The translations under genes were made by a program, and so were the position numbers. A stretch of 64,000 nucleotides of DNA from Escherichia phage HP3. Location of the stretch: the sequence record NC_041919.1. The stretch is one strand, 5' to 3'. The notes under the pieces are model-generated. The model was not told where the DNA came from, did not search any database, and saw nothing but the letters and a program-made list of their open reading frames with translations. This document shows, piece after piece, positions 18,167 through 42,337 of this stretch; position 1 is the stretch's first letter, and each line of letters begins with the position of its first letter.

Positions 18167-19980
18167 CAATTGAAAAAGAAATTGAAGGATTGATTCATAA
18201 AACTAATAAAGACCTTTTGAACGAGAATGCTAATAAAGATTCTCGTGTTTTTCCAACTCAACGGGACCTTATGGCTGGTATTGTGTCTAAACACATTGCC
18301 AAAAATATGGTCCCGTCTTTTATTATGAAAGCGCATGAAAGCGGAATTATTCATTTCCATGATATTGATTATTCCCCTGCTCTTCCATTTACTAATTGTT
18401 GTTTAGTAGATTTAAAAGGAATGCTTGAGAACGGATTTAAGCTTGGTAATGCGCAGATTGAAACTCCTAAATCAATCGGTGTTGCTACTGCAATTATGGC
18501 ACAAATTACTGCACAGGTTGCTTCCCATCAATATGGCGGAACGACTTTTGCGAATGTAGATAAAGTACTTTCTCCTTATGTTAAACGCACATATGCAAAA
18601 CATATTGAGGATGCAGAAAAATGGCAAATCGCTGATGCGTTGAATTATGCTCAATCTAAAACAGAAAAAGACGTATACGATGCATTCCAAGCTTATGAAT
18701 ATGAAGTAAATACTCTCTTTAGTTCAAACGGACAAACACCTTTTGTAACAATTACATTTGGTACGGGAACTGACTGGACTGAACGAATGATTCAGAAAGC
18801 AATTCTGAAAAATCGTATTAAAGGTCTTGGTCGTGATGGGATAACTCCTATTTTCCCTAAGCTTGTTATGTTTGTTGAAGAAGGTGTTAATCTTTATAAA
18901 GACGATCCGAACTATGATATTAAGCAGCTTGCTCTAGAGTGTGCAAGCAAAAGGATGTATCCTGATATTATTTCAGCTAAGAACAATAAAGCTATCACTG
19001 GTTCATCTGTTCCTGTTTCTCCAATGGGTTGCCGTAGTTTCTTGAGCGTATGGAAAGATTCGACTGGTAATGAAATTCTTGATGGACGTAATAATCTTGG
19101 TGTTGTAACACTGAATCTTCCTCGTATTGCGTTGGATTCTTATATTGGAACACAGTTCAATGAACAGAAATTTGTTAAATTATTCAATGAGCGAATGGAT
19201 TTATGTTTTGAAGCTTTGATGTGTAGAATTAGTTCCTTAAAAGGAGTTAAAGCGACTGTTGCTCCTATTCTTTACCAAGAAGGTGCATTCGGGGTTCGTC
19301 TTAAACCTGATGACGATATAATTGAGTTATTTAAAAATGGTAGAAGTTCAGTGTCTTTAGGATACATTGGTATTCACGAATTGAATATTCTTGTCGGTCG
19401 TGATATTGGACAGGAAATTTTAACTAAAATGAATGCTCGTCTTAAACAGTGGACTGAAAGAACTGGGTTTGCTTTTAGCTTGTATTCTACTCCTGCTGAA
19501 AACCTTTGCTATCGCTTCTGTAAACTTGATACAGAAAAATATGGAAGTGTAAAGGATGTTACTGATAAAGGCTGGTACACTAACAGTTTCCATGTTTCAG
19601 TAGAAGAAAATATTACTCCGTTTGAAAAGATTTCTCGCGAAGCCCCGTATCATTTCATTGCAACAGGTGGTCACATTTCTTATGTTGAACTTCCTGATAT
19701 GAAAAATAACTTAAAAGGTCTTGAGGCTGTATGGGATTATGCTGCACAACATTTAGATTATTTTGGTGTTAATATGCCAGTAGATAAATGTTTTACGTGT
19801 GGAAGTACCCATGAAATGACTCCTACTGAAAACGGGTTTGTTTGTTCTATTTGTGGAGAAACTGATCCTAAAAAGATGAACACAATAAGAAGAACATGCG
19901 GTTATTTGGGAAACCCGAACGAACGCGGATTTAATCTCGGTAAAAATAAAGAAATCATGCATAGGGTTAAACACCAATGA
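18163..19980 (+). CDS. nrdD: anaerobic ribonucleoside-triphosphate reductase NrdD (605 aa), intron-less
   Basis: 605 aa continuous ORF; C-terminal glycyl-radical motif RRTCGYLG and Cys cluster CFTCGS..CSICGE. Confidence 0.95.
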   Translation: MTIEKEIEGLIHKTNKDLLNENANKDSRVFPTQRDLMAGIVSKHIAKNMVPSFIMKAHESGIIHFHDIDYSPALPFTNCCLVDLKGMLENGFKLGNAQIETPKSIGVATAIMAQITAQVASHQYGGTTFANVDKVLSPYVKRTYAKHIEDAEKWQIADALNYAQSKTEKDVYDAFQAYEYEVNTLFSSNGQTPFVTITFGTGTDWTERMIQKAILKNRIKGLGRDGITPIFPKLVMFVEEGVNLYKDDPNYDIKQLALECASKRMYPDIISAKNNKAITGSSVPVSPMGCRSFLSVWKDSTGNEILDGRNNLGVVTLNLPRIALDSYIGTQFNEQKFVKLFNERMDLCFEALMCRISSLKGVKATVAPILYQEGAFGVRLKPDDDIIELFKNGRSSVSLGYIGIHELNILVGRDIGQEILTKMNARLKQWTERTGFAFSLYSTPAENLCYRFCKLDTEKYGSVKDVTDKGWYTNSFHVSVEENITPFEKISREAPYHFIATGGHISYVELPDMKNNLKGLEAVWDYAAQHLDYFGVNMPVDKCFTCGSTHEMTPTENGFVCSICGETDPKKMNTIRRTCGYLGNPNERGFNLGKNKEIMHRVKHQ

Positions 19981-20609
19981 ATTATGACAGAATCTATTCA
20001 AATCTAGTTAATTCTGCTGAACACCCATCTAAGCCCCGTCAAACTAAAGCCGGGTATGAACTTCATCATATAATTCCAAGAAGTATGGGTGGTTCAGATG
20101 ATTTAGACAACTTAGTATTTTTAACTTATAAGGCCCACTATACTGCTCACCATTTATTGGCTAAAATATATGGTGGAAAGATGTATGATGCATATTGGAT
20201 AATGAGTAATAGTAAGCATAGAAAAGTTACTTCTTCACAATACGCGTATGCAAAAGCTAAGAAATTTGAAAATCAGCGTGGCGCAAAAAGAAGCGATAAA
20301 ACTAAGAAGCTAATGAGCATAGCTAGGTCTAAAGTAACTCTTCCTGATGATTTTGGAAAAAGGATATCTGATGGGCTAACAGGAAGAACTTTGTCTACTA
20401 GTCATAAAGAGCATATCAAAAATAGTTCTAGAAATCGCTTTAACACCAAAACGGTTATTGGCTATTCACCAGACGGAAATACAATAGAACTAACTGGAGC
20501 AACTGAAATAAGAAATGCAGGATTTTTTCATTCTGCTGTTTATAAATGTTGCAAAGGAATTCAATCTATTCATAAGGGATATACTTGGAAATATAAAGAT
20601 GAATTATGA
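19977..20609 (+). CDS. HNH homing endonuclease (210 aa)
   Basis: HNH motif ELHHIIPRSMGGSDDLDNLVFLTYKAHYTAHH; C-terminal NUMOD-like DNA-binding repeats; starts in ATGA overlap with nrdD stop. Confidence 0.8.
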   Translation: MNYDRIYSNLVNSAEHPSKPRQTKAGYELHHIIPRSMGGSDDLDNLVFLTYKAHYTAHHLLAKIYGGKMYDAYWIMSNSKHRKVTSSQYAYAKAKKFENQRGAKRSDKTKKLMSIARSKVTLPDDFGKRISDGLTGRTLSTSHKEHIKNSSRNRFNTKTVIGYSPDGNTIELTGATEIRNAGFFHSAVYKCCKGIQSIHKGYTWKYKDEL

Positions 20610-21069
20610 TAGAATTTATCCATGCGATTTCGTTAACGGCCCTGGATGTAGGGTCGTTCTCTTCGTCACTGGATGTTTGCATAAATGCGAAGGTTGTTAT
20701 AATCGTAGTACTTGGAATGCTCGTAACGGACAGTTATTCACTATGAATACCGTTAAAGAACTTGCGTCCCATTTAAGCAAATCGTATATCCAAGGCCTTA
20801 CCTTAACCGGTGGTGACCCACTTTATCCACAGAACCGAGAAGAGATTTCAAATTTAGTTTCTTGGGTTAAAGCAAGATTTCCTGAGAAAGACATTTGGTT
20901 GTGGACAGGATATAAGTTTGAAGATATTAAACAACTAGAAATGCTTAAATATGTTGATGTTATTATTGATGGGAAGTATGAGAAAAATCTTCCGACCAAA
21001 AAGCTGTGGCGAGGATCAGATAATCAGCGACTTTGGTCAAATACCGATGGGGTGTGGACACATGATTAA
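20599..21069 (+). CDS. nrdG: anaerobic RNR activase NrdG (156 aa)
   Basis: Radical-SAM CxxxCxxC (CLHKCEGC); 156 aa as T4 NrdG; ATG 20599 inside track ORF 20515-21069. Confidence 0.9.
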   Translation: MNYDRIYPCDFVNGPGCRVVLFVTGCLHKCEGCYNRSTWNARNGQLFTMNTVKELASHLSKSYIQGLTLTGGDPLYPQNREEISNLVSWVKARFPEKDIWLWTGYKFEDIKQLEMLKYVDVIIDGKYEKNLPTKKLWRGSDNQRLWSNTDGVWTHD

Positions 21070-21184: not shown

Positions 21185-21400
21185 ATGTATAAATTTCGTA
21201 AAGGTTTAGCTGATTTTCTTACAACTGTAACGTTCTTTCTGTTTATGGCAGTTGGAGCTATTTTCCTTATTCCTTTTATTGCTATATTTTTCGTGATTAG
21301 TTTGATTTCTCCAGAAAAGAGTTTATCTTCTAGCGAGTTCAATGAGCGTCTGGATAAAATTACTAACAAGCTGAATTCTGTTCTTGATAAAAAGGCTTAA
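21185..21400 (+). CDS. small membrane protein (71 aa)
   Basis: Hydrophobic core FLFMAVGAIFLIPFIAIFFVISLI. Confidence 0.5.
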   Translation: MYKFRKGLADFLTTVTFFLFMAVGAIFLIPFIAIFFVISLISPEKSLSSSEFNERLDKITNKLNSVLDKKA

Positions 21401-21402
21401 TT

Positions 21403-21714
21403 ATGATTAGTTTTGAGCGGTATGTGGTAGAGAGTTGGAAGGGTTTTGATATGTTCGGTAATGACTATTATTTTTACGAATGTAGTCTAAATCCTAGTTT
21501 TTGGGCTGGACGTGAACGAGATCTCGAAGAAATTAATGCTCGTGCCGAATTGTTAGGTGAACTGCCTACGGTTTATTTTACCTTTGATGCATCTGGATTT
21601 GTTATCCAGGTTTATTTTCCTGAAGAAAACTCTGGTGAGGATTCTGTTAACCCGCCATACTGGGCTTATCAAGGAATTATTTCTCGTGGAACAAAACTCG
21701 AACTTAAAGAATAA
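21403..21714 (+). CDS. hypothetical protein (103 aa)
   Basis: Track ORF. Confidence 0.55.
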   Translation: MISFERYVVESWKGFDMFGNDYYFYECSLNPSFWAGRERDLEEINARAELLGELPTVYFTFDASGFVIQVYFPEENSGEDSVNPPYWAYQGIISRGTKLELKE

Positions 21715-21715
21715 G

Positions 21716-22009
21716 ATTGAAATCTATGGCATCCCCGAAGAAGTAGGTCGTTGTCCTGGATGTCAATCAGTTACAAAACTTCTAAAGGAGCTCAATGCTC
21801 CTTTTACTTTCTATAAAGTTCTTACAAATAATGGTAAGATTGAGTATGATCGTCCACTGATTGTATCTCTTGCTAAACGTGCTGGATTCACATCTCTTAA
21901 CATTCGTTATCCAGTCATTTTCATTAATGATTCTAGACAAAAGAACATTAAACACTTCAAAGAAACTCTCATTTCACTTGGATATGATAGAGATATCATA
22001 GAAGATTAA
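21716..22009 (+). CDS. glutaredoxin-like (NrdH-like) protein, start codon uncertain
   Basis: KIEIYGIPEEVGRCPGCQ redoxin motif; no in-frame ATG near the conserved N-terminus (candidates ATT 21716 or GTG 21686). Confidence 0.45.
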   Translation: MEIYGIPEEVGRCPGCQSVTKLLKELNAPFTFYKVLTNNGKIEYDRPLIVSLAKRAGFTSLNIRYPVIFINDSRQKNIKHFKETLISLGYDRDIIED

Positions 22010-22012
22010 GAC

Positions 22013-22033
22013 GGGCCCTCTGGGCCTTTCTTT
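22013..22033 (+). terminator. possible terminator hairpin
   Basis: GGCCC-TCT-GGGCC followed by T-rich run. Confidence 0.4.
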
Positions 22034-22107
22034 CTCACATTCTGTATATTACCATTCTAAGTTATCGTTCCCTTCTTATCATTCCCTAAAATATTTTTCA
22101 CAAAGTT

Positions 22108-40668: not shown

Positions 40669-42096
40669 GTGGTAGAAATTATTCTTTCTCATCTCATATT
40701 TGATCAAGCTTATTTTTCAAAAGTTTGGCCATATATGGATTCAGAATATTTTGAAAGTGGTCCAGCTAAAAATACATTCAAATTAATTAAATCTCATGTC
40801 AATGAGTATCATAGCGTTCCATCTATTAATGCGTTAAATGTTGCATTAGAAAATAGTTCATTTACTGAAACAGAATATTCTGGTGTAAAAACACTTATTT
40901 CAAAACTGGCTGATTCTCCGGAAGACCACAGCTGGTTAGTAAAAGAAACAGAAAAATATGTTCAGCAAAGGGCGATGTTTAATGCTACGTCTAAAATAAT
41001 CGAAATTCAAACTAATGCTGAGCTTCCTCCGGAAAAACGAAATAAGAAAATGCCAGATGTAGGTGCTATTCCTGACATCATGCGCCAAGCATTATCAATT
41101 TCATTTGATAGCTACGTTGGTCATGATTGGATGGATGACTATGAAGCGCGTTGGCTATCTTATATGAATAAAGCTCGTAAGGTTCCATTTAAACTCAGAA
41201 TTCTAAACAAAATTACTAAAGGCGGAGCTGAAACTGGAACACTGAACGTTTTAATGGCTGGTGTTAACGTTGGTAAGTCATTAGGACTTTGTTCATTAGC
41301 AGCAGATTATTTGCAGCTTGGTCATAACGTTCTTTATATCTCCATGGAAATGGCAGAAGAAGTCTGTGCTAAACGTATTGATGCTAATATGCTTGATGTT
41401 TCTCTTGATGACATTGATGACGGGCATATTTCTTACGCTGAGTATAAAGGAAAAATGGAAAAATGGCGCGAGAAATCTACTCTCGGTCGTTTAATCGTTA
41501 AACAGTATCCTACTGGTGGAGCAGACGCTAATACATTTCGATCACTTTTAAACGAATTGAAGCTCAAGAAGAATTTTGTTCCAACAATCATTATTGTCGA
41601 CTATCTAGGTATTTGTAAATCTTGTCGCATCCGAGTTTATTCAGAAAATAGTTACACAACTGTTAAAGCTATTGCAGAGGAATTGCGTGCTCTGGCTGTT
41701 GAAACCGAAACTGTTCTTTGGACTGCAGCACAGGTTGGTAAACAAGCTTGGGATTCTTCTGATGTTAACATGAGTGATATCGCAGAATCTGCCGGTCTTC
41801 CAGCAACAGCTGATTTTATGCTTGCGGTCATTGAAACCGAGGAGTTAGCAGCTGCTGAACAACAACTTATTAAGCAAATCAAATCACGATATGGTGATAA
41901 GAATAAATGGAATAAGTTTTTGATGGGTGTTCAAAAAGGAAATCAGAAATGGGTAGAAATTGAACAAGATTCTACTCCAACTGAAGTGAGTGAGGTAGCA
42001 GGTTCACAACAGATACAAGCTGAGCAGAATCGCTATCAAAGAAACGAATCGACTCGAGCTCAGTTAGATGCTTTGGCAAATGAATTAAAATTTTAG
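40669..42096 (+). CDS. 41: replicative helicase gp41 (475 aa)
   Basis: Starts (GTG) MVEIILSHLIFDQAYF; Walker A GVNVGKS; 475 aa. Confidence 0.95.
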   Translation: MVEIILSHLIFDQAYFSKVWPYMDSEYFESGPAKNTFKLIKSHVNEYHSVPSINALNVALENSSFTETEYSGVKTLISKLADSPEDHSWLVKETEKYVQQRAMFNATSKIIEIQTNAELPPEKRNKKMPDVGAIPDIMRQALSISFDSYVGHDWMDDYEARWLSYMNKARKVPFKLRILNKITKGGAETGTLNVLMAGVNVGKSLGLCSLAADYLQLGHNVLYISMEMAEEVCAKRIDANMLDVSLDDIDDGHISYAEYKGKMEKWREKSTLGRLIVKQYPTGGADANTFRSLLNELKLKKNFVPTIIIVDYLGICKSCRIRVYSENSYTTVKAIAEELRALAVETETVLWTAAQVGKQAWDSSDVNMSDIAESAGLPATADFMLAVIETEELAAAEQQLIKQIKSRYGDKNKWNKFLMGVQKGNQKWVEIEQDSTPTEVSEVAGSQQIQAEQNRYQRNESTRAQLDALANELKF

Positions 42097-42133
42097 TTTA
42101 CAAGCTGACAAGACTATGGTATAGTAGTCTTGT
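42096..42133 (+). promoter_or_regulatory. early promoter embedded in inverted repeat (copy of 6532-6573)
   Basis: GTTTAC 42096-42101, TATAGT 42120-42125; arms ACAAGACTA / TAGTCTTGT. Confidence 0.6.
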
Positions 42134-42154: not shown

Positions 42155-42337
42155 ATGGAATTGGTAAAGGTAGTTTTTATGGGGTGGTTTAAGAATGAAA
42201 GCATGTTTACTAAAGAGATCACAATGATGAAAGATGACGTTCAATGGGCTACTACTCAATATGCTGAAGTTAATAAAGCACTAGTTAAAGCTTTCATTGA
42301 TGACAAGAAGGTATGTGAAGTGGATTGCCGAGGATAA
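42155..42337 (+). CDS. dmd: Dmd antitoxin-like protein (60 aa)
   Basis: 60 aa directly downstream of gene 41 as T4 dmd. Confidence 0.75.
   Translation: MELVKVVFMGWFKNESMFTKEITMMKDDVQWATTQYAEVNKALVKAFIDDKKVCEVDCRG

Follow-up and report, generated by a model that had tools for sequence, protein, structure and literature searches.

Bacteria have three canonical start codons, and GTG is among them. In phage T4, nrdH (NP_049686.1; NC_000866, complement 41805..42113) is annotated from such a codon, preceded by AAGGA in the context taAGGAatagttGTGaaacaaaataagATTgaa (AAGGA-N6-GTG), and only this GTG (or an ATT) can start the T4 gene because the frame is closed by a TAA three codons 5' of the GTG. 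That nrdH starts at GTG is already known, being annotated in T4, in Escherichia phage HP3.1, and in many other genomes, and the T4 annotation indicates that a non-ATG start is a trait of the family that is already on record in the reference annotation. A literature search returned no paper giving the N-terminus of T4 NrdH, nor any profiling of T4 initiation sites. In E. coli, GUG starts 14% of genes, at 10%–100% of the efficiency of AUG, and AUU initiates at 1%–2% of AUG, with infC and pcnB as its only confirmed cases (bioRxiv 10.1101/063800).

We analyzed the nrdH locus in a 64,000-nt stretch of phage DNA (hereafter, the window), for which an earlier note had described a glutaredoxin-like gene, resembling T4 nrdH, without a canonical start codon. 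Over 661 bases surrounding the junction between this gene and the 103-residue open reading frame that precedes it (ORF103), the window, a T4-like coliphage, is 100% identical to Escherichia phage HP3.1 (Tequatrovirus) and 95%–99% identical to ∼400 other T4-like phages. The gene order is nrdD, HNH endonuclease, nrdG, a 37-aa ORF, 55.8, ORF103, nrdH, terminator, and 55.6 (Table 1). T4 has the same neighborhood (nrdD, homing endonuclease, nrdG, 55.8, nrdH, and 55.6, with the same terminator) but lacks ORF103, so that nrdH directly follows 55.8 and there is no gene overlap. The two loci also differ in the spacer between the Shine-Dalgarno (SD) element and the GTG, which is 6 nt in T4 and 10 nt here, and in the N-terminal extension of NrdH, which, with the start included, comprises 5 codons in T4 (VKQNK) compared with 10 here (VEQNSNLKNK).

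Table 1. Features of the nrdH locus, with positions in the window
Feature	Position	Strand	Basis or remark
HNH homing endonuclease	19977-20609		between nrdD and nrdG
nrdG	20599-21069		5' of the 37-aa ORF
37-aa ORF			between nrdG and 55.8
55.8	21185-21400		5' of ORF103
ORF103 (103 aa; phrog_2749; RB69ORF082c-like)	21403-21714	+	ORF list, phrog match
Frame-2 open stretch 5' of the GTG	21557-21685	+	non-coding in frame 2
Invariant run, 42 nt	21670-21711	+	12 distinct sequences compared
Putative SD element of nrdH, AAGGA	21671-21675	+	within ORF103 codons Gln90-Gly91
nrdH (107 aa + stop)	21686-22009	+	translation, homology
Putative GTG initiation codon of nrdH	21686-21688	+	conserved, SD upstream
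ORF103 (frame 1)/nrdH (frame 2) overlap, 29 nt	21686-21714	+	
ATT, codon Ile11 of NrdH	21716-21718	+	rejected as start
Intrinsic terminator-like hairpin GGGCCC-TCT-GGGCC with T-rich tail	22013-22037	+	after nrdH
55.6			3' of the terminator

Upstream of this region, the endonuclease ORF opens with a copy of nrdG codons 1–7 (MNYDRIY; 19977–19997 compared with 20599–20619). The two 21-nt stretches have two differences, both synonymous, and 11 nt at the start of nrdG are shared with the endonuclease ORF; from the copy and the overlap, it appears that the mobile endonuclease gene duplicated or captured the nrdG initiation region. At the other end of the locus, the hairpin proper after nrdH spans 22013–22027 and is followed by a T-run, and the record of phage e11/2 labels the same spot as a terminator. 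A second terminator-like hairpin, AAAGGAGCTCAATGCTCCTTT, with a T-rich tail lies at 21784–21804 inside the nrdH coding sequence, as a consensus match only. A promoter scan inside ORF103 gave nothing relevant.

The predicted protein is 97% identical to T4 NrdH over 100 residues, and the earlier identification of the gene as glutaredoxin-like and T4 nrdH-like is borne out. It matches phrog_22 (thioredoxin domain), and its 97-aa core passes the Pfam Glutaredoxin model (PF00462) marginally, with 24.2 bits against a cut-off of 22.9; the 150-aa ORF that results when frame 2 is read from further upstream scores 22.6 bits against the same cut-off. The nearest solved structure is the T4 glutaredoxin NrdC (1ABA; E = 7e-4), in an alignment that places NrdH residue 12 opposite 1ABA residue 3, and an NCBIfam scan with the NrdH and ORF103 proteins found no family at E ≤ 0.01. 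The redoxin core, K-IEIYGIPEEVGRCPGCQ, which is without any Met, begins with AAG at 21713–21715 followed by ATT at 21716–21718, and the CPGC motif, encoded at 21752–21763 after β-strand 1, is intact. Because the variable sites in the nrdH-only part (12 distinct sequences) split 15/7/44 over codon positions 1/2/3, nrdH is to be read as a gene under purifying selection and not as a decaying one. Taken together, the matches identify it as a T4-type phage nrdH, with a product predicted to have a glutaredoxin fold. Bacterial NrdH-redoxins are marked by C-[VM]-Q-C and WSGFRP motifs. The protein encoded here has CPGC, lacks WSGFRP, and hits no NCBIfam model, and it does not reach the curated NCBIfam family of bacterial NrdH-redoxins, the class Ib ribonucleotide reductase reductants; "nrdH" is the T4 gene name and should not be taken as orthology to bacterial NrdH.

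The GTG at 21686 is in the nrdH frame, 30 nt 5' of the codons for IEIYG with no stop between, and is the sole in-frame ATG, GTG, or TTG within 45 nt 5' of the core. The nrdH frame holds no ATG from 21590 to the stop; a far-upstream in-frame ATG at 21587 falls where frame 2 shows non-coding evolution. Much of the earlier description of the junction is accurate: the 103-aa ORF ends with TAA at 21712–21714, the ATT at 21716 begins 2 nt past the last base of that stop, there is no ATG near the N-terminus, GTG 21686 is in frame, and frame 2 is open to 21557. The same note listed GTG 21686 among the candidate starts but discounted it as being without an SD, and on this ground it was mistaken, as it was in regarding the gene as devoid of a canonical start codon. 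AAGGA at 21671–21675 is separated from the GTG by a spacer of 10 nt, inside the ∼5–13 nt expected of an SD, and its duplex with the 16S 3' end has a computed energy of −5.4 kcal/mol, which is among the best 8% of window positions. The corresponding SD energies of the neighboring genes are −5.0 (55.8), −3.2 (ORF103), −3.3 (nrdG), and −6.2 kcal/mol (55.6), and the ATT at 21716, at −0.9 kcal/mol, equals the window median, that is, background. GTG 21686 corresponds to the annotated start in HP3.1, fFiEco06, e11/2, wV7, moha, CT01, and Mizar; the Mizar record annotates the AGGA found here as a ribosome_binding_site, and a ribosome-binding site together with the GTG is annotated at these positions in the curated records of Mizar and KLB31.

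We put the probability at roughly 0.9 that GTG 21686, served by the AAGGA element, is the start of nrdH by ordinary SD-dependent initiation, and we infer that this codon is the one used in vivo. It should be noted that a spacer of 10 nt is toward the upper limit of what is usual. Initiation at this GTG would produce a 107-aa glutaredoxin-fold protein, the first 10 residues of which (fMet-EQNSNLKNK) would form a short extension ahead of the first β-strand, IEIYG. The last 15 codons of ORF103 would then contain both the ribosome-binding site of nrdH and its first 10 codons, and ribosomes terminating on ORF103 probably help to load the nrdH start by translational coupling.

Substitution patterns were analyzed in 12 distinct ORF103-bearing sequences, which diverge from one another at up to 13% of sites, with 113 of the 607 sites of the ORF103-nrdH locus variable. 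The longest invariant run is the 42-nt stretch that starts one base ahead of the SD, takes in spacer, GTG, and extension codons, and reaches up to the ORF103 stop; the SD and GTG 21686 are thus invariant in 12/12 distinct relatives carrying ORF103. Third positions of ORF103 codons are variable at 36/89 sites upstream of this run compared with 0/14 inside it, and the corresponding chance, (53/89)^14 ≈ 7e-4, is indicative only, the 12 sequences being phylogenetically related. Conservation of the SD and the GTG in ORF103-bearing genomes is also partly confounded by the coding constraint on ORF103, which weakens the case for the GTG to that extent. Changes inside the NrdH extension are all synonymous when read in frame with nrdH: AAT/AAC occurs both in Mosigvirus and in T4-type genomes, and ESh36 has CAA/CAG. 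The metagenomic contig L044 (Logan assembly ERR10879660, 866–900) carries one additional G within the SD region (CAAGGGAATT), and this 1-nt insertion puts the last 10 ORF103 codons in a third frame and scrambles the C-terminus, with the GTG and the NrdH extension unchanged save for a synonymous TCG to TCA; the insertion could be an assembly error.

A 59-nt query across the junction is matched at 100% identity by 136 phage records and at ≥95% by 410 of 421. With junction queries that carried ATG at the GTG or the ATT position, no record reached 99%, and with the GTG-to-ATG query, which covered the same 59 nt, the identity bands shift by exactly one mismatch. Together, these two results indicate that no close relative has ATG at either candidate position, and they exclude the sequencing error that the earlier note had considered. 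That note had also pointed to an orthologous junction with a simple ATG as a finding that would remove the problem; such junctions are found in distant genera only (L024–L032), with none among ∼419 close relatives.

The presence of ORF103 is polymorphic: ∼422 of 831 matching records carry it, and both forms, with and without the ORF, are found in Tequatrovirus as well as in Mosigvirus. Genomes without it (T4, ESh36, Mosigvirus AV118, and sequences L014–L016) all keep the SD-GTG-nrdH arrangement. In a MAFFT alignment, the AAGGAAT...GTG.AAC elements of T4 and ESh36 align with the same elements of the window; for T4, the gaps are 4 and 15 nt long. The AV118 junction reads AAGGAATAATTGTGGAACACAACAAGATT, in which AAGGAATAATTGTGGAACA matches GTGGAACA of the window, GTGGAACA being common to both. 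In the genomes without ORF103, the last codons of 55.8 (AAG GAA TAG/TAA) themselves constitute the nrdH SD, and this suggests a deletion or insertion of ORF103 whose breakpoint was the AAGGAAT common to both forms.

The genomes read from Tequatro-, Mosig-, Gapriver-, Dhaka-, and Kanagawavirus, as well as Yersinia phage P8, have a GTG in frame and preceded by an SD at −15, −21, or −30 nt from the IEIYG codons, and all changes in the distance between the GTG and the core across these lineages are multiples of 3. The SD energy is −5.4 to −8.6 kcal/mol in the eleven scorable junctions, as against +0.4 to −3.3 kcal/mol at the core codon, and the sole exception in the five named genera's comparison is the single record of Pectobacterium phage PM2. 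Gaprivervirus UPEC01, Yersinia phage P8, L020–L022, and Dhakavirus ABTNLsp5 have AAGGAG-N9-GTG with the GTG at −21 nt (−8.0 kcal/mol), and the Kanagawavirus sequences CIP9, PEi20, and KLB31 have AAGGTGGT-N7-GTG, also at −21 nt (−8.6 kcal/mol). In L019, AGGGGG-N8-GTG places the GTG at −15 nt, where the energy is not computable as the contig begins too close. L023 (IMG/VR UViG 2974666281, ∼786–801) has neither ATG nor GTG before VEIYG, and its in-frame candidates are only a TTG at −15 nt (−5.6 kcal/mol) and a TTG at −6 nt, making it another non-ATG start of nrdH. The more distant genera (L024–L032) have a plain ATG 1–2 codons 5' of the core, with energies of +0.2 to −3.7 kcal/mol.

Frame 2 upstream of GTG 21686 is open back to another GTG at 21557, which would yield the 150-aa ORF. 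In the ORF103-only part (21403–21670), 36 of 46 variable sites among the 12 distinct sequences are third positions of ORF103 codons and, equivalently, fall on codon position 2 of frame 2; because of this distribution, frame 2 upstream of the GTG is to be regarded as non-coding, and the frame-2 "protein" of this stretch differs heavily between near-identical phages. In the Gaprivervirus-like genomes (L020–L022, UPEC01, and Yersinia phage P8), frame 2 is closed by TGA or TAA two codons 5' of the GTG, and the long frame-2 ORF is therefore not conserved. A start of this ORF at 21557 or at the ATG at 21587 was rejected, given that the frame evolves as non-coding.

ORF103 matches phrog_2749 with E = 3.7e-49 and has no Pfam or NCBIfam family. 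Its AlphaFold model (pLDDT 80.9, pTM 0.73) is a small α/β domain in which the last strand, residues 87–92, contains the Gln-Gly pair encoded by CAAGGA, that is, by the SD, and in which residues 96–103, the C-terminal tail, are disordered; a search of the PDB with the model found no fold match better than E = 2. A homologue search returned 4 clusters with lengths of 97–105 aa, among which there was no fusion and no Pfam domain. The family is predicted to be well folded and consistently adjoins nrdH in many Tevenvirinae genera. In the 29-nt overlap there is a single variable site among the 12 distinct sequences, a T/C at 21712 that is synonymous in nrdH (AAT/AAC) and turns the ORF103 stop into a sense codon, the stop being moved 6 nt downstream in Mosigvirus. 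The overlap would pair the predicted disordered C-terminal tail of ORF103 with a non-structural N-terminal extension of NrdH, and it may be tolerated because two structurally unconstrained tails are paired; the same pairing may be the reason why the ORF103 stop always lies beside the first core codon.

The position of this stop is also among the points in favor of ATT 21716 as the start, whether alone or next to another, with reinitiation after the TAA at 21712–21714 yielding a 97-aa NrdH that would begin (M)IEIYGIPEEVGR rather than (f)MEQNSNLK. The ORF103 stop and the ATT are 1 nt apart, the stop lies within a few nucleotides of this codon in every ORF103-bearing lineage (TAAgATT, TAAaATC, ATTGA), so that a minor reinitiation product might arise there alongside the product from the GTG, and the 97-aa protein would begin where T4 NrdC does, as judged from the 1ABA alignment given above; the RefSeq record of phage PP01 is the sole public record annotated in this way. 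However, the ATT has no SD, its energy being that of the background, and AUU is the inefficient codon described at the outset. The ATT of T4-type genomes lies 17 nt from the nearest upstream stop and 21 nt from the SD, so that it cannot be served whereas the GTG is ideally placed. Moreover, Dhakavirus has ATC at this codon and other genera, which have their own upstream start, have ATA, GTT, or GTG, a GTG, TTG, or ATG is always available upstream, and a start at the ATT leaves both the invariant SD-GTG block and the synonymous-only changes in the extension unexplained. The unusual initiation codon proposed in the earlier note thus has neither an SD nor conservation as AUU. We consider a start at the ATT distinctly unlikely and read the codon, from its conservation, as the Ile/Val codon of the first β-strand and not as a start.

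A programmed +1 frameshift from ORF103 into the nrdH frame within 21686–21714, giving an ORF103-NrdH fusion, would be in keeping with the overlap and the +1 position of nrdH relative to ORF103, with the invariance of the overlap, and with the continuous 199-aa ORF of Pectobacterium phage PM2. It is contradicted by T4, ESh36, AV118, and L014–L016, which lack ORF103 yet keep SD-GTG-nrdH (AAGGA-N6-GTG in T4 and AV118), nrdH being autonomous there, and the closed frame 2 of the Gaprivervirus-like genomes also speaks against it. No known +1 slippery motif of the CUU-UGA or CUU-AGG type was found on reading the overlap, the fold of 21640–21750 has a z-score of −0.03 and hence no stable structure, the ORF103 homologues found are all of unfused length, and PM2 is represented by one record only, in which the junction is shorter by 1 nt and includes an A7 homopolymer. 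Frameshifting, likewise raised in the earlier note, is therefore very improbable. The absence of an ATG near the N-terminus could finally reflect gene decay, or the loss of a real ATG through an error of assembly or sequencing, but the identity of the junction across the 136 independent phage records, the lack of any record with ATG at either candidate position, the intact ORF with its CPGC, the close match to T4 NrdH, and the third-position bias of the substitutions all speak against this, and we give decay or error hardly any credence.

PM2 (NC_028940; L037, 243–842) deserves separate mention, since GTG is out of frame in this phage, which counts against the assignment of the start to GTG. 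Its ORF103 homologue and NrdH form one continuous ORF, annotated nrdH, and its junction, ctaGTGgaaaaaaatatcctaaaATT, with the A7 run at about 42,213–42,242 of NC_028940, would with one more A in the homopolymer (A8) be restored to two genes, the ORF103 TAA then preceding the ATT by 1 nt and the GTG being in frame. An independent PM2-like genome was sought in the phage collection and in IMG/VR, which returned only PM2 itself, and the continuous ORF reflects either a sequencing error in the homopolymer or a genuine, lineage-specific fusion. A further proposal, which we hold to be unlikely, is that ORF103 and NrdH are a functionally linked pair, with the conserved overlap enforcing translational coupling and possibly with a minor reinitiation product at the ATT; the PM2 fusion would in that case be real, and ORF103 would be an uncharacterized partner of this redoxin, whose gene belongs to the phage's anaerobic ribonucleotide reductase cluster.

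Annotated starts of nrdH vary among public records. The start is placed at the ATT-equivalent position in PP01 (NC_054930; L008, 737; 97 aa), at an internal ATG just after CPGC in UPEC01 (L034, 888) and Yersinia phage P8 (L035, 789), where the resulting 82-aa product has lost the active site, and at an ATG 39 nt 5' of the core in MY742 (L038, 560). The comparative series would fix the correct nrdH start across the Tevenvirinae group, and its practical value lies in annotation. The biological weight of the finding is small, as T4-like phages routinely have a GTG start whose SD is hidden in the final part of the gene before it.

In comparison with the E. coli genes that start at AUU, infC and pcnB, the locus is alike in having an in-frame ATT, here at the first residue of the folded domain, but differs in that this ATT is without an SD and is not conserved as ATT, and in that every ATT-bearing lineage has an upstream SD and GTG. 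The resemblance to prfB-type +1 frameshifting lies in the +1 position of the downstream frame and in an SD-like element upstream of the overlap; unlike in prfB, a shift site of the CUU-UGA type is missing, 37 nt separate the SD from the ORF103 stop, and the downstream nrdH is autonomous, with the same SD and GTG, where the upstream ORF is missing. The closest counterparts are the nrdH genes of HP3.1, fFiEco06, e11/2, wV7, and Mizar, Tequatrovirus and Mosigvirus genomes with an RB69ORF082c-like ORF, in which the overlap is annotated as 29 nt (35 nt in Mosigvirus moha): their junctions are identical or nearly so, the 324-nt coding sequence runs from the same GTG, and nothing material differs from the locus described here.
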